Of a stretch of DNA of 64,000 bases, positions 1 to 8,660 are shown one piece after another. The stretch lies in the NCBI RefSeq assembly GCF_044324875.1, contig NZ_CP172185.1, one strand, 5' to 3'. The position numbers were made by a program, and so were the translations under genes. The notes under the pieces are model-generated. The model was not told the DNA's origin, did no database searches, and was given only the letters and a program-made list of their open reading frames with translations. Position 1 is the first letter of the stretch. Each line of letters starts with the position of its first letter. Source of the DNA: Escherichia coli. Lineage in GTDB: Bacteria > Pseudomonadota > Gammaproteobacteria > Enterobacterales > Enterobacteriaceae.

Positions 1-1523
<1,523 letters not shown>

Positions 1524-1786
1524 GAAGGTGAATAAGTGATAGCCCAATCGCCTTTCTGCATTTCATTCACAAAGCGCCAAACCTGAGAAGCACCAGAGCG
1601 AACTGTGCCTGGCTTAGTCTGTGGCTCAAGCTCCTGATACCGGATAAACAACTGCTCTCTTGAGCATCCAGGTTTCACATAGGGAGCGAGCTGCGACCAA
1701 CCAATTGCAACAACCTGTTTGTCTCTGAAGTCGTCGTACAATTTTCCGCCATCACCGCGGATCATCCACATCTTAGTCGCCACAAT
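1524..1786 (-). pseudogene. 5' portion of the IS-interrupted ORF (N-terminus (V/M)ATKMWMIRGDGGKLYDDFRDKQVVAIGW..)
   Basis: Reverse-strand ORF with AGGA about 6 nt upstream of a GTG/ATG start near 1771-1786; protein-like sequence through about codon 85, after which the frame runs into IS-derived sequence. Confidence 0.4.
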
Positions 1787-1893
1787 AATTCCTTCTGAAA
1801 ATACTTCATCGTTATACCGGGACGTGATCATTCCATTCAGCCACCTTATCCAGGGGAAAAACACCGATAAGATGGCTAATCAAAATGTCTGTT

Positions 1894-4800
1894 CTAAACC
1901 TGACGCCTATCAAGACTATTATAAATAGCCTCAATCTCACCTTTCAGGTTATCACCAGAGTAAACCATCGATGTATCGTATCGTTCATATCGCGCTTCCC
2001 GTGTCGCACTAAACCAGTTGAACGATCCCACGCATAGCAAACCATCATCACCAATAACAATTTTGCTATGAACACGGTTTACCAGCTTTGTAGCAATACC
2101 CAGCGCATTCAGTTTCTCCAGCGCCGCTTTAAGGTTCTGCTGCTTCTCTTTTCGCTTCTCAAAATCTTTATGTTCAGTGTTATAGCTTCTGTCAGTGACT
2201 ATCGTGACGTTAATTCCACGTGAACACGCCGCAATCATGGAATCAAGAAAACCCGTTTGCTCCAGCTTTTGCCAGGTCAGCCATGGAGAAACTATCGTGA
2301 TGTGTTTATCGGTATTTTCAAACGTCTGATTCAGGAAATTATCATGCTGCTCCACACCATGGAGTGTGTAGATTTTGGTCTCGGAAGTTTTTAAATCCTT
2401 ACGCTCTTTATAATCAAAAGAGAGCGCATTCTTCTCGGACTCAAAGAGATATTTTGCCAGTAATCCCCGCGGAGATGAGGCTGGCTGGATCTCAAACAGG
2501 TCCATATCGCCGAAGACCAGGAAACTGTCCTTCGCACGGGAGACAGCAACGTTCAGCATGCTGTTATCGCTATCAATAAACCCGCCATCCTCATGCTTTG
2601 AATAGACTGGCGAGAATATAACAATCGCTCTTTCCGCCCCCTGAAGAGAATGCACGGTGCCCACGGTGAGCGACGTTTCATTCGCGCCTGTACTGATGCC
2701 TTGTTTACCCAGCGCCTGTTTGATAGTCGATACCTGCGCGCTAAAAGGCGTCACGATACCGACAACTTCATGAAGCGATTTGCCGTAATGCGCTTCAATA
2801 TCTTGCTGGTTATCTGTCAGCCAGGCAGCTATCGTTTCAGCCTCAAGCAAATTATATCGACTTCCGCTACTTGCCAGCGCTCCTTTACCATCAATATGGA
2901 GATAACCCATTGCGGGCATTAAATTGCTCTCTTCACGCCCTCTTTTAGGCAACAACTTACCGTGATAGCAGAGCGTATTACAGTATCCAATAATATTATC
3001 GAAGCACCGGCGGTGTTCATATAGGTACATACCACGAGCCAGTTCGGGATCATATTGATAGCGCGAAGCAAACTGAGCTATTTTCATAACGCTGCCAGAT
3101 GCGGCACTTTTACCAAGGTCTGCGATTGCCGTATATTTCTCGGTAATCTCTTCTTGCGTACTGCCAGACAGAATTTTTTCCGCCAGCATGTTACCGATAT
3201 CAATCGCAGGAGCAATACTCCATATTGGCGGGATCTGCTCCGTATCGCCAATCACTAATGCCTTCTTAGCTAATGCAAACGAGGCAGCAGCCACTTCAGG
3301 AAGCACCTGTCCGGCTTCATCGACAATGAGTAAATCGGCAAAATCATACAAATAACTTTTCTCGAATTTACGTTGTCCTTTGTGCTCACTTATCTGCATA
3401 TTGCCGGGCAGCATATAGCATGTCATCACCACACATGGAATGAGTTTCATTCGACGTTGCCAACGGGCAGTTACTCCTTTAGCGCCTTTTTTCTTCTTCT
3501 CTTCCTGCAGATCATCAATTCTGGCCATATCCATCAGCCAACGACCTTCCCAGTAGTGAGTCGTCAGTAAAAATGCAGGGAAGCGAATCTGCGTATCAGC
3601 CAGTTCATCGGCCTGTGAGAAGCTCAGTTCCTCGTCGCCCTCATACCCTAAATCAAGTGTCAGCCTCTGCCACTCCTGAACCGCCTGCTGTTCTTTAAGA
3701 ACGATTTCATGGGCGGAGTCAATCTGCTTCCGGTATGTTGTTTGCTCGCGTTCAGCGGAATTGAGCAGCCCATCAATATTACGTTCGATAGTTTCAGGAT
3801 CAGACCACTGATTTCCTGCAATCAGCGCGCCTAATTTATCTTCGAGAAACAGCTGTATTTGGTACTGTCGCTTATTGCGAACCGCCGGGAGCCAGGAAAA
3901 TAATGAATAGATCAGTGATTCACCGGCGCGATATTTTTTCCATTCCGTTTTAGCACTCTTCAGTAGAGTAACTTTTTGTTCTTGCCCGGAGAGTAATTTA
4001 TTTAAATTATCGAGATATTGCTCAATGTTATCAGCAATAAGCTCACGCGCCGCCCGAACCTGGCTTAACGTTTGCCATGTTGCGTTCAGTCTTATCAGTT
4101 GCTCGGATTTTGCTGCCAACTGACCATGCAGGAGTTCAATGACCTTTTCAGGGGATGAACACTCTTTTTCAGGAAAGGCTGCCTTAGCCTTCTCCAGATA
4201 AAACAGCAGTGCATCCTCTACATACTCTTTTGACTCAACCTGGTTGAAGAAATCTTCAGTTTGATATTTTTTGGCGGCCTCAGCTTTACGAGTGCTTGAG
4301 GGAAAATAAGCGCCGAAGCTTTTCAGCTCTGGCAACCATCGTCCGGCCATCGCACCGGTGCCCTGGGAAAAATCTTTCCCGAACGCCTCGATAATGTTCG
4401 TGACAGCCTGGTTATTCGTTGAGGTCGCGATAATGACCGGAGGCTCAGATTTTTCGAGAGCCGCTCGGGCCCACTGCGTGGCGATGATAGAAAGCACCAG
4501 CGTGGTTTTTCCGGTTCCCGGAGGGCCATTAACAGCAAGGATATCGCCATGTCTGGCATCCAGAAAATGGCTTAAGGCATCGCGCTGAGCCTTTGCCAGC
4601 GGAAACTTATCTCCGGAGTGTCCAAGCCTGTCGCTGAATTTTGCTCCTGGGGCCAGCAAAGACTCTGCAGCATGAACCTCTCGCGAGGCGAAGCGATTGA
4701 AGAGTGGCACATCCTTCTTGCAAACAAGCAGGTGATCATAAAGCGAAAGGATATGGAAACTGGCACCGCCAGATTGCGCCGTTTTAACAATATAACCGTG

Positions 4801-5409
4801 CTCAGCGAGTTCATATTGCTCAGGATTTTTAATCCAGTCGCCGGCAACGTTCTTCAGCAGCCTCTCTGAATCATCCAGATATTGACGCCAATCCTGCTGC
4901 AAGGCTGCATATCGTGCTTCCCGTTCTTCATCCGTTTCGGCAGTGTTATCAACGCTGTCATCAAACTTGATAGAGAATGACGTATGTGTCGTTTTATATT
5001 TGTCATACTGCTCAATCTCACCAATCGAAAATGCCCCTTTTGGCAAAGGTTCAAGCAGGTCTCTGGGAATGGAGGTCGCTGGCGTCGGGTATAAAAAACC
5101 CTCACGGCTTAGCAAGGCTGGCGTCACTAGCGGGGTAACAATATCAGGCACGCCTGCGGAACGGTCCTTACCATGCTGCAGTAACCGAAAATAAACTTTT
5201 GGGCGCAAGACGACATCGACCGTTTCGACATCGTCTTTTTCTCCCTCAAAAAATTTACTGACAATCGCTTCGTCAAGACGTCCCGCCGCTATCCCATGCC
5301 AGTGAGTGAAATTTTGGGCGTCTTTCCGTTCAAAGCTGCCCTTTCCTGACTCAGCATCCGCAAGCGAGTTGCGCCAGTATGAGGCAAACCCTAAAGCATT
5401 TTCATCCAT
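1894..5409 (-). CDS. Superfamily-1 (Upf1/DNA2-like, COG1112-type) helicase fused to a C-terminal phospholipase-D (HKD) family nuclease domain; candidate defense protein (Mokosh type II-like architecture)
   Basis: 1171-aa ORF. Walker [13 protein letters not shown]; motif [10 protein letters not shown]; motif [14 protein letters not shown]; motif [20 protein letters not shown]-terminal HKD motif [25 protein letters not shown] about 8 nt upstream of ATG. Confidence 0.85.
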
Positions 5410-5734
5410 TACCAGTCCTATGACTCAATGAAATCCATTGATTTATCGAATATAAAATCACCGTATGGATAACTATTGTCCACGTTGAAAGGCTGGCTGC
5501 AATGTTTTGTTCACGCTTCGATACAAATACTCAGGTTATACGGAGTTCAGAAAACGACCATATCATGCTGCATGGCACATAAAAGCTTTATAACCGAAGC
5601 AGCAAAGGATTACCGGCTGCGCAGCACGCCACGAAAGCCCGTGAGCTCTACTGGACAGCGTTCAGTGCAATATTGGAGTCTGTAAGTCCAGAAAATATCA
5701 CTGTCGAAGATGGTTCTGTATGTAGGTGCGCCAG

Positions 5735-6112
5735 CTATTGTTTTGTCCGATGCTTGCGAATAAAAGCATTCAAAATGTCGCCTTCACCATGCATGACAGA
5801 AAAAGAATATTCACATTCTTTCTTTATCAAGATTCCACATAATTCCTTGTGCAAATCTACATTAACTCCCTTTCCTTTCTGTGCTTTCTTCACACCGAGC
5901 TCACATGAACTGATTAATTCAACGTTACAGGGTTTCTTCAAATAATTCACACCATCAATTAAGCCCTGGAGAATGCATCTATTTGCGGTCGTATTACTGT
6001 AGGAGAAGGTCAGATATTTTATTTTCCCTTCACATTCCAGCACAACTTCCGCCGAACCTTCACGTGTTGCAGCATCACAACTTCCTGTTGAATATATTTT
6101 CACCATCTTCAT
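5735..6112 (-). CDS. Small RNase HI-like fold protein with substituted catalytic residues (predicted inactive pseudo-RNase H)
   Basis: 125-aa ORF; by-eye alignment to E. coli RNase HI: VKIYSTGSCD vs VEIFTDGSCL, NTTANRCILQG vs RTTNNRMELMA, VELISSCELG vs VILSTDSQYV, VNVDLHKEL..HGEGD vs KNVDLWQRL..HAGHPENERCD, with the DEDD positions replaced. Strong SD (GGGGAAAGG) upstream. Confidence 0.55.
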   Translation of the reverse strand: MKMVKIYSTGSCDAATREGSAEVVLECEGKIKYLTFSYSNTTANRCILQGLIDGVNYLKKPCNVELISSCELGVKKAQKGKGVNVDLHKELCGILIKKECEYSFSVMHGEGDILNAFIRKHRTKQ

Positions 6113-6180
6113 TTTGTACCTTTCCCCTTACCAAACGAATCATGACATCCTATATCAAAGGCATTCTCGTCAAAACTTTA

Positions 6181-6960
6181 CTATCTCAGTAAATTCTCCC
6201 GATGCCACTCCAGATAACAATACGATTCAACAGAAAACGCCTTTATTTTCTCCGGCAACAAACATTGCTCTTTAACGCTAATATCCAGCTCCTTACTAAT
6301 TAATAAATGCCCATCGTTCTCAAACGAAATCCATCCCTGATCGAATAGAATATCAATATGCGCAGCCAATATAATTCCATTAAAAGGATCAAGACGTTCA
6401 TTTCCATTCTCGCAGGCAGCCCACGGCTTTATATGGCTGGCACGCAGTAAAGGTGCAAAAGTCGTTCCCGTAACAGGGCATGCCGGATACAACATGAGAC
6501 AATTTTTCCGAAAGGTACCTTGCCCCAGCCGTGCCGCAATCAGCTGCTCGCGTACGGTATCTTCAATACTTTTATCCTGCTGAATAGCAAGACAGTCACG
6601 TTGTGCCTGTTCATCTCTATCAGTCGATATTAACGAAAGAACGCGCTGCTCAATTGCACTATCAGAAAGCACACTCAATCGCTGATGAACACGCTGCGCT
6701 GAATGAGAAAGCGCAGCAGGAGCACCCTGCTCGTCACGCCAACCGACACGCACATCACTAAGCCAGGAATCAAAACGGTCACGACTATTTTTCAGACTAT
6801 TGTGAAACTCGCTGGCAGTTTTGCCCGCTCCAAATCGAGGATAAAACAAGGCAAAAGCCTCTTTCCATTTCTGAACACCCAGTCCTGCGGGTGGTTGAGA
6901 GTTACCATACTTCGACAAATACCACGCCACTTCAAGCAAATCGTCTTCAGAGCTATTCAA
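6181..6960 (-). CDS. HNH-family endonuclease (259 aa); apparent TTG start
   Basis: C-terminal HNH motif ..LRASHIKPWAACENGNERLDPFNGIILAAHIDILFDQGW..; frame is open only back to a TAA at 6988-6990 and the first plausible start is TTG at 6958-6960 with AGGA 7 nt upstream; no in-frame ATG near the N-terminus. Confidence 0.7.
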   Translation of the reverse strand: MNSSEDDLLEVAWYLSKYGNSQPPAGLGVQKWKEAFALFYPRFGAGKTASEFHNSLKNSRDRFDSWLSDVRVGWRDEQGAPAALSHSAQRVHQRLSVLSDSAIEQRVLSLISTDRDEQAQRDCLAIQQDKSIEDTVREQLIAARLGQGTFRKNCLMLYPACPVTGTTFAPLLRASHIKPWAACENGNERLDPFNGIILAAHIDILFDQGWISFENDGHLLISKELDISVKEQCLLPEKIKAFSVESYCYLEWHRENLLR

Positions 6961-7030
6961 TATTACGTCCTGTTTTTGCAGAGTAAATTATCACCAGATT
7001 ATATCTGAAAAAATCATTTACTAAACTGAT

Positions 7031-7174
7031 CTGCTTACCTGCAAAACGGTACTGCAAACGCTAATACTCAGAACCATTAAAAGGAACAAGCAGGTGCATA
7101 CCGCTGCCATCGGTCAGTTTGTACTGCTTATCCGTTGGCCTGGCTGTTCTGACCTTGATATCTGTTAACGCCAT
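7031..7174 (-). pseudogene. intB: 5' remnant of a P4-type tyrosine integrase (intB-like) adjacent to leuX; in-frame amber then loss of homology
   Basis: Reverse-strand ATG at 7174 with strong SD (GGGAGGGG) encodes MALTDIKVRTARPTDKQYKLTDGSGMHLLVPFNGSEY-stop-RLQYRFAGKQ, matching the conserved N-terminus of P4-family integrases; TAG at 7061-7063 sits where a conserved Trp is expected; no integrase-like sequence below about 7030. Confidence 0.75.
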
Positions 7175-7324
7175 GCTTATCCCCTCCCTGTTGGTACAAG
7201 CATTATCGAACCGGAAATACCATCATCTGTACCAACATGTGTTGGTAGATGTACGTTGATATCGGTTGACCTTGAGAGAGTTAATATAGCGAAAAAGGTA
7301 GGTAACTGCTGGATTTCAGGCATA

Positions 7325-7350
7325 AAAAAAGACCTCAGTTGAGGTCTATT
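7325..7350 (-). terminator. Rho-independent terminator downstream of leuX
   Basis: Hairpin GACCTCAGTTGAGGTC followed by a T-run on the minus strand immediately 3' of the tRNA. Confidence 0.7.
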
Positions 7351-7360
7351 TACATACTTT

Positions 7361-7445
7361 TGGTGCCGAAGGCCGGACTCGAACCGGCACGTATTTCTAC
7401 GGTTGATTTTGAATCAACTGCGTCTACCGATTTCGCCACTTCGGC
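7361..7445 (-). tRNA. leuX: tRNA-Leu (anticodon CAA)
   Basis: Reverse complement reads GCCGAAGTGGCGAAATCGGTAGACGCAGTTGATTCAAAATCAACCGTAGAAATACGTGCCGGTTCGAGTCCGGCCTTCGGCACCA: cloverleaf with CAA anticodon loop, long variable arm, encoded CCA. Confidence 0.92.
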
Positions 7446-7640
7446 ACTGAAGAGGTATGCGGAAAACGTTGTGGATTATACCTGTCGCACGCCACCATGC
7501 AAGCGCCAGCTTGCTCGCACCTCGCTAAGTGCTGAAATTTTCAGCATTGCATACAGCGATGTGTAACCTTTGTCACACTCCAGGCACCCCGCCCTGCCAT
7601 GCTCTACACTTCCCAGACAACACCAGAGAAGGACTAAAAA

Positions 7641-8660
7641 ATGTCGATGATAAAAAGCTATGCCGCAAAAGAAGCGGGCGGCGAACTGGAACTTTATGAG
7701 TACGATCCCGGTGAATTGAAGCCACAAGATGTTGAAGTGCAGGTGGATTACTGCGGGATCTGCCATTCCGATCTGTCGATGATCGACAACGAATGGGGAT
7801 TTTCACAATATCCGCTGGTTGCCGGGCATGAGGTGATTGGGCGCGTGGTGGCGCTCGGGAGCGCCGCGCAGGATAAAGGTTTGCAGGTCGGTCAGCGTGT
7901 CGGGATTGGCTGGACGGCACGCAGCTGCGGGCATTGCGATGCCTGTATTAGCGGTAATCAGATCAACTGCGAGCAAGGTGCGGTGCCAACAATTATGAAT
8001 CGCGGCGGTTTTGCCGAGAAGTTGCGTGCGGACTGGCAATGGGTGATTCCGCTGCCAGAAAATATTGATATCGAGTCTGCCGGGCCGCTGTTGTGCGGCG
8101 GTATCACGGTCTTTAAACCACTGTTGATGCACCATATCACTGCCACCAGCCGCGTTGGGGTAATTGGTATTGGCGGGCTGGGGCATATCGCTATAAAACT
8201 TCTGCACGCAATGGGATGCGAGGTGACAGCCTTTAGTTCGAATCCGGCGAAAGAGCAGGAAGTGCTGGCGATGGGTGCCGATAAAGTGGTGAATAGCCGC
8301 GATCCGCAGGCACTGAGTGCCCTGGCAGGGCAGTTCGATCTCATTATCAACACCGTCAACGTCAGCCTCGACTGGCAGCCTTATTTTGAGGCGCTGACGT
8401 ATGGCGGTAATTTCCACACCGTCGGTGCGGTTCTCACGCCGCTGTCTGTTCCGGCCTTTACGTTAATTGCGGGCGATCGCAGTGTCTCAGGTTCGGCAAC
8501 CGGTACGCCTTATGAGCTGCGTAAGCTGATGCGCTTTGCCGCCCGCAGCAAGGTTGCGCCGACTACCGAACTGTTCCCGATGTCGAAAATTAACGACGCT
8601 ATCCAGCATGTACGCGATGGTAAAGCGCGCTACCGCGTGGTTCTGAAAGCCGACTTCTGA
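7641..8660 (+). CDS. ahr: NADPH-dependent aldehyde reductase (zinc-type alcohol dehydrogenase)
   Basis: 339-aa ORF; Zn-ADH motifs ([26 protein letters not shown]); matches E. coli Ahr/YjgB by recall. Confidence 0.9.

Follow-up and report, generated by a model that had tools for sequence, protein, structure and literature searches.

Genomic locus and island context

The window, a stretch of 64,000 nucleotides of Escherichia coli DNA, carries near one end the long gene mkoC, between a tRNA-Leu gene and a restriction endonuclease gene that is split by an insertion sequence. The features of this region are as follows:

235 to 1512, minus strand: IS621 of the IS110 family, 1278 bp, which interrupts the restriction endonuclease gene downstream of mkoC (NCBIfam IS110 transposase, E 6e-76)
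1513 to 1764, minus strand: 5' part of the restriction endonuclease (PDC-S02-like) gene that IS621 splits (PADLOC PDC-S02, E 6.2e-19)
1894 to 5409, minus strand: mkoC coding sequence, type II Mokosh (ORF list, translation, PADLOC MkoC PDLC03924, SG150 comparison)
5410 to 5735, minus strand: upstream region of mkoC, matching the 326 bp cloned by Millman et al. as native promoter
5735 to 6112, minus strand: gene of a 125-aa RNase H-like protein, not part of the system (NCBIfam RNase HI)
6181 to 6960, minus strand: HNH endonuclease gene, 259 aa (PADLOC HNH PDLC04132, E 8.8e-21; RefSeq 'HNH endonuclease')
7064 to 7174, minus strand: island integrase remnant, a DUF4102 N-terminal fragment of 111 bp (RefSeq annotation of the near-identical loci L001 and L002, with coordinate offset)
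7361 to 7445, minus strand: tRNA-Leu(CAA), leuX, at which the island is integrated (ARAGORN, Rfam tRNA)

The mkoC frame runs from an ATG at 5409 to a stop codon at 1896-1894 and encodes 1171 amino acids plus stop (131.6 kDa). A preliminary description of this DNA had placed a 1171-aa ORF at exactly these coordinates and left the strand unstated; translation assigns it to the minus strand, since a plus-strand reading of 1894-5409 yields stops throughout and was rejected. A stop codon lies in frame six codons 5' of the ATG, and an AGGA sequence is found about 9 nt 5' of it. The uninterrupted frame of 3.5 kb, together with domain-profile matches at E = 0, rules out a chance ORF. An identical protein sequence has been deposited from E. 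coli genomes, the corresponding 90%-identity cluster comprises 2682 members, and WP_000344099.1 from other complete genomes differs from the window protein at two residues. RefSeq names the protein just 'AAA domain-containing protein' or 'DNA helicase'. Between mkoC and the upstream gene lies a gap of 325 bp, in which a promoter scan detected no strong sigma-70 consensus, so that the mkoC promoter was not located. Besides tRNA, an Rfam scan of window positions 1-8000 found no structured RNA.

To the right of leuX follow ahr and yjgR. On the other side of mkoC, the uninterrupted locus L001 served as the reference for the boundaries of IS621, and the 3' part of the split restriction endonuclease gene occupies positions 1-234 and extends past the window edge. 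The same gene is intact, with 990 bp, in L001 and L009, and is present as two partial pseudogene pieces in L002. The RNase H-like protein matches NCBIfam RNase HI with 43.5 bits against a cut-off of 160, and with its N-terminal half only; in a BLASTP comparison with E. coli RNase HI, equivalents of the catalytic residues D10 and E48 are missing. This gene is absent beside mkoC in the other strains examined, and the HNH gene is not linked to mkoC there.

Among complete E. coli genomes, mkoC is present in 839 of 5426 (about 15%) and never on plasmids. In three other strains (SF-468, BH100, and G1/2), the gene adjoins a P4-type integrase in islands at pheU, pheV or leuX, and no conserved partner gene accompanies it. 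mkoC is an accessory, island-borne gene, found in tRNA-linked islands wherever examined and in a leuX defence island in the window. The HNH, RNase H-like and restriction endonuclease genes were considered as obligatory partners of mkoC. This reading was dropped because mkoC in the three strains has the integrase immediately on one side and unrelated cargo on the other, and because the published system was cloned as a single gene.

Domain architecture of MkoC

The protein is built of an N-terminal domain, a helicase core, and a C-terminal nuclease domain, within which the following features were located:

4615 to 5409, minus strand: N-terminal family-specific alpha/beta domain, residues 1 to about 265 (MkoC profile, homologue alignment)
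2485 to 4614, minus strand: Upf1-like SF1B helicase core, residues about 266-975 (Pfam AAA_11/AAA_12, PDB sequence matches, Foldseek)
4504 to 4527, minus strand: Walker A / motif I GPPGTGKT, residues 295-302 (motif search)
3445 to 4230, minus strand: long insertion in RecA1 made up wholly of helices, between motifs Ia and II, residues about 394-655 (DSSP of the AlphaFold2 model)
3307 to 3321, minus strand: Walker B / motif II DEAGQ, residues 697-701 (motif search)
3226 to 3249, minus strand: motif GDTEQIPP, residues 721-728 (motif search)
2629 to 2655, minus strand: motif V region VHSLQGAER, residues 919-927 (motif search)
1897 to 2397, minus strand: C-terminal single-HKD PLD-family nuclease domain, residues about 1005-1171 (Pfam, PADLOC, NCBIfam)
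2047 to 2070, minus strand: sole HxKx4D motif HSKIVIGD, residues 1114-1121 (motif search of the whole protein)

The helicase core comprises two RecA-like domains with the SF1 motifs I, Ia, II, III, V, and VI, and motifs and model together reveal a fold like that of Upf1, Senataxin, and IGHMBP2, which is characteristic of Upf1-like SF1B helicases. The AlphaFold2 model of the window protein has a pLDDT of 92.9 and a pTM of 0.88. In the family alignment, P296, P297, and G300 of motif I are invariant, and G295, G298, T299, K301, and T302 are conserved at 90% or more, as is each of D697, E698, A699, G700, and Q701 in motif II. G721, D722, and Q725 of the GDTEQIPP motif are likewise invariant, and so is Q923 in the motif V region, in which H920, G924, and R927 reach 90% or more. 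Sequence matches in the PDB are a Senataxin-like helicase, IGHMBP2, Dna2, Upf1, and Sen1. Foldseek against the PDB retrieved Senataxin, Upf1, IGHMBP2, and Aquarius (E 1e-17 to 1e-14, probability 1.0), with Dna2 also among the neighbours. The preliminary description had proposed an Upf1-like SF1 helicase with a complete motif set, which agrees with these neighbours and with the location of all the motifs it quoted.

The helicase core fold and the motifs are thus common to MkoC and the eukaryotic Upf1-like SF1B helicases (Upf1, Senataxin/Sen1, IGHMBP2, Aquarius, Dna2, and MOV10L1). However, sequence identity amounts to 11-14%, MkoC has neither a CH domain nor any other eukaryotic accessory domain, and, unlike its eukaryotic relatives, it fuses helicase and nuclease in one chain. 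A solved Mokosh structure was not found, and these eukaryotic helicases constitute the best matches in the PDB by both sequence and fold. The insertion in RecA1 is made up of helices at residues 394-411, 420-458, 462-495, 508-530, 538-586, 597-630, and 643-654 (DSSP of the AlphaFold2 model), and its position matches that of the 1B/1C accessory insertions of Upf1. Judging from family membership, MkoC would translocate and unwind in the 5'-to-3' direction in an ATP-dependent manner; a literature search found no published unwinding assay for MkoC.

The N-terminal domain of about 265 residues has no neighbour in Pfam, NCBIfam or the PDB. Initially described as motif-less, it proved to be a conserved, integral part of MkoC: the MkoC profile extends over it, as does the alignment of 65 homologues, and it carries an IPRDxLEP motif. 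Presumably, it acts in sensing or regulation. There are also helicase-only homologues of about 990 aa without a PLD domain, one of which follows a GGDEF gene.

Assignment of the C-terminal domain to the PLD superfamily is based on an HxKx4D motif within a PLD fold, as indicated by profiles and the predicted domain, which is alpha/beta with a pLDDT of about 84-97 in the AlphaFold2 model. Pfam PLDc_2 matches residues 1028-1143 (E 1.1e-9) and the PLDc active-site motif matches residues 1110-1133 (E 9.6e-4). The domain is also matched by the PADLOC profiles MkoB and DrmC and by the NCBIfam models for NucT, DrmC, and cardiolipin synthase, and weakly by the sequences of NucT (6ehi) and Nuc (1byr). 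The active site reads HSKIVIGDD at 1114-1122, followed by GSFNWF at 1128-1133; D1121 is invariant in the family alignment, with H1114 and K1116 at 90% or more. Exactly one HxKx4D is present in the protein, in line with the single HKD motif originally noted for a C-terminal PLD nuclease. A two-HKD active site, formed by a homodimer or by internal duplication, was not identified, and no second, degenerate PLD half was found in the chain.

In having one HxKx4D with a downstream GSxN in a domain of about 165 residues, MkoC resembles Nuc of pKM101, NucT of Helicobacter pylori, and DrmC of DISARM, the profile matches being weak yet consistent. Whereas these three are small proteins that stand alone, MkoC has its PLD domain attached to a helicase, and MkoC as a whole is reportedly a monomer. 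Known single-HKD PLD nucleases form one active site from two HKD halves, and Nuc acts as a homodimer.

Identification as type II Mokosh

The domain composition and the comparisons described below identify the ORF with high confidence as mkoC, the one gene that makes up a type II Mokosh anti-phage system, located in a defence island at leuX and encoding a three-module protein whose helicase would guide PLD cleavage. The PADLOC MkoC profile (PDLC03924) aligns with residues 1-1169 over profile positions 1-1135 of 1136 (E = 0, 1688 bits). A profile search had been suggested as a check in the preliminary description, and Pfam detects AAA_11 (272-487 and 679-729), AAA_12 (776-969), and PLDc_2 (1028-1143), in that order in one ORF. 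This corresponds to the definition of type II Mokosh, i.e., one polypeptide in which a COG1112/Upf1-like SF1 helicase precedes a PLD-family nuclease (Millman et al., 2022; bioRxiv 10.1101/2022.05.11.491447). The earlier reservation that the domain order may differ from that of characterised members is thereby removed, as it is exactly theirs. The ATP-binding site and the HKD site are both intact in sequence and conserved family-wide. Conservation of the catalytic residues extends through the 65 homologues and holds for all seven E. coli alleles to which the window was compared.

The verified type II MkoC is that of system SG150 from E. coli 5-366-08_S1_C1 (IMG gene 2586378093, 1171 aa; Millman et al., 2022). 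Over the first 399 residues, which are those printed in Table S2 of that study, it is 97.5% (389/399) identical to the window protein, with which it shares its length and architecture. Nine of the ten substitutions (Q32K, V87A, E133G, T141I, K148N, V153I, N155K, D173E, and R175H) fall in the N-terminal domain, and the tenth, T351S, in the helicase. This near identity and the full-length profile match corroborate the initial suggestion of a helicase-nuclease effector such as type II Mokosh. At its printed start, the SG150 insert that was cloned has 9 mismatches to the window in 399 nt. Type II Mokosh, cloned as one gene with the native sequence upstream of it, protects E. coli from phage, and defence is abolished by mutation of the ATP-binding site and likewise of the PLD active site (Millman et al., 2022).

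Type I Mokosh consists of two genes, mkoA and mkoB, and MkoA carries a Ser/Thr kinase domain, whereas the window protein is a fusion without a kinase: the Pfam scan detected no Ser/Thr kinase domain in it. There is no separate MkoB (PLD) gene beside mkoC, its neighbours being the RNase H-like, HNH, and restriction endonuclease genes. The RecA2 / motif II-VI region of MkoA is homologous to window residues 692-974 (PADLOC MkoA, E 7e-36), and the PLD domain of MkoB to residues 1005-1138 (PADLOC MkoB, E 1.6e-17). The N-terminal domain and the RecA1 insertion have no match to the MkoA profiles.

Recently, a type II protein termed EcMokosh II was purified ('Nuclease-NTPase systems use shared molecular features...', bioRxiv 10.1101/2025.07.10.664194). 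According to this preprint, it is a monomer of about 132-138 kDa, which cuts ssDNA (M13; an ssDNA phage rendered 'SEC 17') and nicks plasmid DNA, but leaves linear dsDNA uncut. A nuclease mutant does not cleave M13 ssDNA in vitro, whereas an NTPase mutant still cuts M13. Among 11 phages, EcMokosh II restricts only the ssDNA phage rendered 'SEC 17'. On the active concentration the preprint contradicts itself, giving 'all concentrations' in the text and 'only at 1 uM' in the legends. Its constructs are described as 'M1-A995 / L996-end' with 132 kDa, and the window protein has A995 and L996 and a mass of 131.6 kDa. From residue numbering and mass, we infer that EcMokosh II is essentially the window protein. 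The fit of boundary and mass implies that the properties of EcMokosh II, i.e., monomeric state, HKD-dependent ssDNA cleavage, and plasmid nicking, most likely apply to the window protein as well. Given its sequence similarity, the window allele probably confers phage resistance, as published for the near-identical SG150 gene and for EcMokosh II. The window carries an ordinary mkoC allele. Type II Mokosh as a system was described, tested, and purified earlier, and there is nothing new in this copy.

Alternative roles and substrates

Several other readings of the locus can be weighed against defence by a functional MkoC. That the protein is a housekeeping or DNA-repair helicase-nuclease (Dna2-, RecD- or AddAB-like) without a role in immunity might be suggested by weak matches to RecD and RecD2 in the Walker A region, by Dna2 among the structural neighbours, and by the unspecific RefSeq names. 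The RecD matches, however, reach 24-26 bits against cut-offs of 310-500 and concern the P-loop only, and the best full-length match is the MkoC defence profile, with a near-identical gene shown to defend. Moreover, mkoC occurs in just a minority of complete genomes, in tRNA-linked islands beside an integrase or other defence genes, and this distribution and context rule the housekeeping reading out; its probability is negligible. Nearly as improbable is a decaying, non-functional allele in an eroding island, of which the integrase fragment and the IS621 splitting the adjacent restriction endonuclease gene are reminiscent: the mkoC frame is intact at 1171 aa with the two differences from WP_000344099.1, all catalytic and family-invariant residues are present, and the sequence upstream agrees at 390/399 nt with the promoter region that was functional when cloned. 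Alternatively, mkoC could primarily serve its mobile island, excluding competing elements such as ssDNA-transferring plasmids, satellites or filamentous phages, or stabilising the island, with defence against lytic phages as a by-product. In the three islands at pheU, pheV, and leuX, mkoC is the first cargo gene after the P4-type integrase, the enzyme prefers ssDNA, and the sole phage restricted in the panel of 11 has an ssDNA genome; conjugative transfer also delivers ssDNA. In the window, however, only 111 bp of the integrase remain and mkoC lies among other defence genes, a pattern like that of a host-retained defence island, and service to the island seems unlikely.

A more serious alternative, although still a tentative one, concerns the substrate: MkoC might be RNA-directed like Upf1, or like MOV10L1 with Zucchini/PLD6, such that the helicase tracks phage transcripts or R-loops, the PLD domain cuts RNA, and ssDNA cleavage is a side activity. 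RNA or RNA/DNA intermediates were proposed as the Mokosh target early on (Millman et al., 2022). The nearest folds are RNA or RNA/DNA helicases (Senataxin with ssRNA, Upf1-RNA, IGHMBP2-RNA, and Aquarius), and the substrate panel used for EcMokosh II did not include RNA (bioRxiv 10.1101/2025.07.10.664194). Furthermore, the piRNA-pathway proteins MOV10L1 and PLD6 (Zucchini) have been linked to Mokosh domains, and the pairing of helicase and PLD domain in MkoC parallels theirs in piRNA biogenesis (Cury et al.). The biochemistry to date, however, consists of HKD-dependent ssDNA cleavage, with defence limited to an ssDNA phage. Fold similarity cannot decide on the substrate, because the Upf1-like helicases Dna2, IGHMBP2, and Upf1 act on ssDNA too, and Dna2 is among the neighbours of MkoC.

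Proposed mechanism and significance

As a type II Mokosh effector, MkoC would operate with three modules: the family-specific N-terminal domain, the Upf1-like SF1B helicase/ATPase with its large helical insertion, and the C-terminal single-HKD PLD nuclease. The helicase module might spend ATP to load onto, or translocate along, phage-derived single-stranded nucleic acid, which could be ssDNA intermediates of replication and, perhaps, transcripts or R-loops. The PLD domain would thus be brought to the substrate and cleave it, presumably through a phosphohistidine intermediate. Since single-HKD PLD nucleases pair two HKD halves, cleavage would probably depend on two MkoC molecules, or a pair of PLD domains, coming together on the substrate. 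Purely by analogy, we infer that MkoC might dimerise there; the monomer observed for EcMokosh II in solution has no obvious fit to a two-HKD site. A speculative and rather doubtful extension is a built-in licensing switch, in which the nuclease would become competent only when ATP-driven translocation unites two MkoC on one phage-derived strand, with the N-terminal domain as sensor or gate. Were this true, the helicase-only homologues would mean that the N-terminal domain and the helicase constitute a reusable sensor module for other effectors.

Questions about Mokosh at large concern the nucleic acid sensed in vivo (RNA or ssDNA), the role of the orphan N-terminal domain, and the activation of a lone HKD in a monomer, and they gain interest from an evolutionary link that has been proposed to the piRNA machinery of animals (MOV10L1/PLD6). 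The window locus gives no leverage on them beyond the published E. coli protein. Its allele is routine, the defence gene being published and annotated widely, and PADLOC or DefenseFinder would label it. It can serve as a positive control, in which a real helicase-PLD immune effector was recognised from raw sequence.

Identification of mkoC as a Type II Mokosh Gene

The locus is a defence gene that is already known and characterised, in a typical setting. The single gene, mkoC, lies at 1894-5409 on the minus strand, where its frame runs unbroken for 1171 aa from the ATG at 5409 to the stop at 1896-1894; the preliminary description gave this frame and its coordinates correctly but named no strand, and a plus-strand reading is ruled out by stops that interrupt translation. 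The start is unambiguous, because a stop closes the frame six codons before the ATG and an AGGA sits about 9 nt ahead of it. The motifs quoted in that description all recur in the translation (calculated mass 131.6 kDa), and its single HKD is borne out by a pattern search, which returns one HxKx4D in the whole protein:

Residues 295-302, GPPGTGKT
Residues 697-701, DEAGQ
Residues 721-728, GDTEQIPP
Residues 919-927, VHSLQGAER
Residues 1114-1122, HSKIVIGDD
Residues 1128-1133, GSFNWF

The proposed reading as a Upf1-like helicase with a PLD domain, i.e., a type II Mokosh protein, is supported by profile and structure searches. The PADLOC-DB MkoC profile PDLC03924 aligns residues 1-1169 with profile positions 1-1135/1136 (E = 0, 1688 bits); lesser matches are to MkoA (RecA2 region only) and to MkoB and the DISARM protein DrmC (PLD region). 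Pfam matches AAA_11, AAA_12 and PLDc_2, in that order, with the PLDc active-site motif at residues 1110-1133 and no kinase domain. NCBIfam yielded no equivalog model for MkoC, and its partial, sub-threshold matches are to PLuB helicase-like protein, IGHMBP2-family helicase, RecD, NucT, cardiolipin synthase and DrmC. The nearest PDB structures by sequence are a Senataxin-like 5'-3' RNA helicase, IGHMBP2, Dna2, Upf1 and Sen1. A confident AlphaFold2 model built with 65 full-length homologues as input (mean pLDDT 92.9, pTM 0.88) retrieved Senataxin-ssRNA, Upf1, IGHMBP2, Aquarius, Sen1, Dna2, ZNFX1 and coronavirus nsp13 from the PDB in Foldseek (E 3e-17 to 1e-10, 11-20% identity); the search found no solved Mokosh structure. 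Public E. coli entries with the identical protein are named “AAA domain-containing protein” or “DNA helicase,” and the 90%-identity cluster that includes it counts 2682 proteins.

Conservation and Domain Architecture

Searched exhaustively with HMMER, a set of 1.84 billion representative proteins yielded 1140 clusters at E <= 1e-30, of which the best 150 are mostly co-linear over nearly the whole query (~1120-1280 aa). In an alignment of 65 homologues, positions invariant or conserved at >=90% comprise Walker A, DEAGQ, GDxxQ, Q923/G924/R927 and H1114/K1116/D1121, as well as Y11, D18, G104, R116, L119, P121 and Y224 in the N-terminal region. The ~300 N-terminal residues, previously described as motif-less, form a conserved domain (residues 1 to ~265; consensus IPRDxLEP), which folds confidently when modelled alone (pLDDT 89.7). 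A monomer with one HKD is unusual among PLD nucleases and could have been accounted for by a hidden second PLD half, which was sought in this domain and not found. A long all-helical insertion in RecA1 (residues ~394-655 of the model) would match the 1B/1C accessory domains of Upf1 in position.

Some homologues (~40-47% identity) end at about residue 996, retaining the N-terminal domain and helicase without the PLD domain:

Locus L006, 5001-7973, and locus L007, 288-3218, genes of PLD-less homologues
P0044, P0052, P0053, P0055, P0056, P0061 and P0063, PLD-less homologues

No PLD gene lies beside the helicase gene at either of these two loci; at L006, a GGDEF-domain gene precedes it by 8 nt. 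This suggests that PLD-less variants may work through another effector, and it is possible that they are truncated or decayed copies.

Comparison With Published Mokosh Proteins

By definition, Mokosh systems pair a COG1112/Upf1-like helicase with a PLD nuclease; three such systems defended E. coli, and defence was lost when the ATP-binding site or the PLD active site was mutated (Millman et al., bioRxiv 10.1101/2022.05.11.491447). Table S2 of the same work gives the verified type II system as SG150, an 1171-aa MkoC from E. coli 5-366-08_S1_C1 (IMG gene 2586378093), and prints its residues 1-399 and nt 1-399 of the cloned insert. Over these, 389/399 residues and 390/399 nt agree with the window, the DNA stretch covering 326 bp before the gene and 73 nt of its start.

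A second protein, EcMokosh II, was purified, divided into constructs “M1-A995” and “L996-end,” and modelled as a 132 kDa monomer (10.1101/2025.07.10.664194). Residues 995 and 996 of the window protein are likewise A and L, and its mass is 131.6 kDa; from this numbering and mass, EcMokosh II is therefore taken to be the window protein or a close allele. Mass photometry showed a monomer of ~138 kDa; in a panel of DNA substrates, ssDNA alone was cleaved (M13 and an ssDNA phage rendered as “SEC 17”), plasmid DNA was nicked, and dsDNA stayed uncleaved; cleavage was lost in the nuclease mutant and kept in the NTPase mutant (10.1101/2025.07.10.664194). The main text describes activity “at all concentrations tested” (10 nM to 1 uM), whereas the captions to Figure 4c and Extended Data Figure 7 restrict cleavage to 1 uM (10.1101/2025.07.10.664194), a conflict relevant to the question of whether protein molecules must meet one another for activity.

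The leuX Island

In the window, mkoC lies in an island to the left of leuX on the E. coli chromosome; on the other side of leuX come ahr, yjgR, lptG and lptF:

1-234 and 1513-1764, minus strand, disrupted restriction endonuclease (intact copy in L001, a near-identical uninterrupted locus, 5496-6485)
235-1512, minus strand, IS621 (IS110 family, 1278 bp; junctions 233-234 and 1513-1514)
5735-6112, minus strand, RNase H-like gene (125 aa; N-terminal half aligns to RNase HI)
6181-6960, HNH endonuclease gene, upstream of the RNase H-like gene
~7064-7174, minus strand, integrase remnant (111 bp; N-terminal DUF4102 fragment of the island tyrosine integrase)
7361-7445, leuX, tRNA-Leu(CAA)

GN06156 and M7424, the complete genomes nearest to the window (99.7% identity), carry left of leuX, in order, an integrase remnant, HNH endonuclease, RNase H-like gene, mkoC, a PDC-S02-like restriction endonuclease, a TIR-domain protein and a type I restriction-modification system; in uninterrupted relatives the endonuclease gene has these last two after it. 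The window therefore starts within a defence island of several systems, and only 111 bp of the island integrase are left. M7424 has, in addition, a P4-like satellite (integrase, primase-helicase, Icd-like) that adjoins the remnant on the tRNA-ward side; leuX lies beyond the stretch shown for that strain.

Three other strains carry mkoC in pathogenicity islands, immediately after an intact P4-type integrase:

SF-468, island at pheU, pap genes present
G1/2, island at pheV, sigA present
BH100, island at leuX, full 1263-bp integrase between leuX and mkoC

None of these three islands has the HNH or RNase H-like gene, which rules both out as partners of mkoC, in agreement with the single-gene cloning of Millman et al. 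Given the full integrase of BH100 against the 111-bp remnant, the two genes appear to have displaced most of the integrase gene. The RNase H-like gene is always paired with an HNH gene (141/5426 complete E. coli genomes), at the leuX island in all loci examined, and the pair might be a two-gene module in its own right. The 125-aa protein reaches 43.5 bits against NCBIfam RNase HI (cut-off 160) and has T and I at the positions of catalytic D10 and E48 of RNase HI, which makes an inactive RNase H-like fold probable.

Just downstream of mkoC, IS621, a bridge-RNA-guided recombinase of the IS110 family, splits a gene annotated “restriction endonuclease,” which hits PDC-S02, a candidate defence family in PADLOC (E 6e-19). 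The uninterrupted minus-strand site, ATCGGACCTAT, matches the published target, ATCGGGCCTAC, at 9/11 positions with the CT core in place (PMC11208160), which makes it an off-consensus, non-REP target within a coding gene. Strains with an mkoC region only 96.7% identical in DNA (e.g., 2c3) have IS621 at the same position; the window's closest relatives (99.7%) lack it.

Mechanism and Alternative Readings

The gene is present at >=80% coverage in 839/5426 complete E. coli genomes (15%), chromosomal every time, with best-match nucleotide identity >=95% in 874/888 genomes with any match; seven alleles are all 1171 aa, 95.6-99.8% identical to the window protein, with every catalytic residue intact. 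On this distribution, together with context and conservation, the readings as a housekeeping helicase and as a dead allele are both rejected.

The best-supported mechanism joins the published account to inference. For the near-identical published protein, one gene is enough for defence, the ATP and HKD sites are both required in vivo, and in vitro ssDNA cleavage by the solution monomer is HKD-dependent and NTPase-independent. The SF1B motor would load on or track phage single-stranded nucleic acid and deliver the PLD domain to it, and an active site would form there only once two PLD domains come together, as with Nuc-type enzymes. The chief rival still standing is an in vivo substrate of RNA or R-loops rather than ssDNA: the closest structural relatives of MkoC are RNA helicases, and the ssDNA activity comes from a panel of DNA substrates (10.1101/2025.07.10.664194). 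How the half-site is activated, what the orphan N-terminal domain does and which ligand is bound in vivo are questions for Mokosh generally rather than for the window locus.

Judged by ORF lengths and order against the K-12 map, 8000-64000 is presumably ordinary core chromosome (yjgR, lptG/lptF, pepA, valS, argI, pyrBI, mgtA, treRBC, nrdDG, tamAB). Lower-GC stretches lie at 18-24 kb and 59-62 kb.
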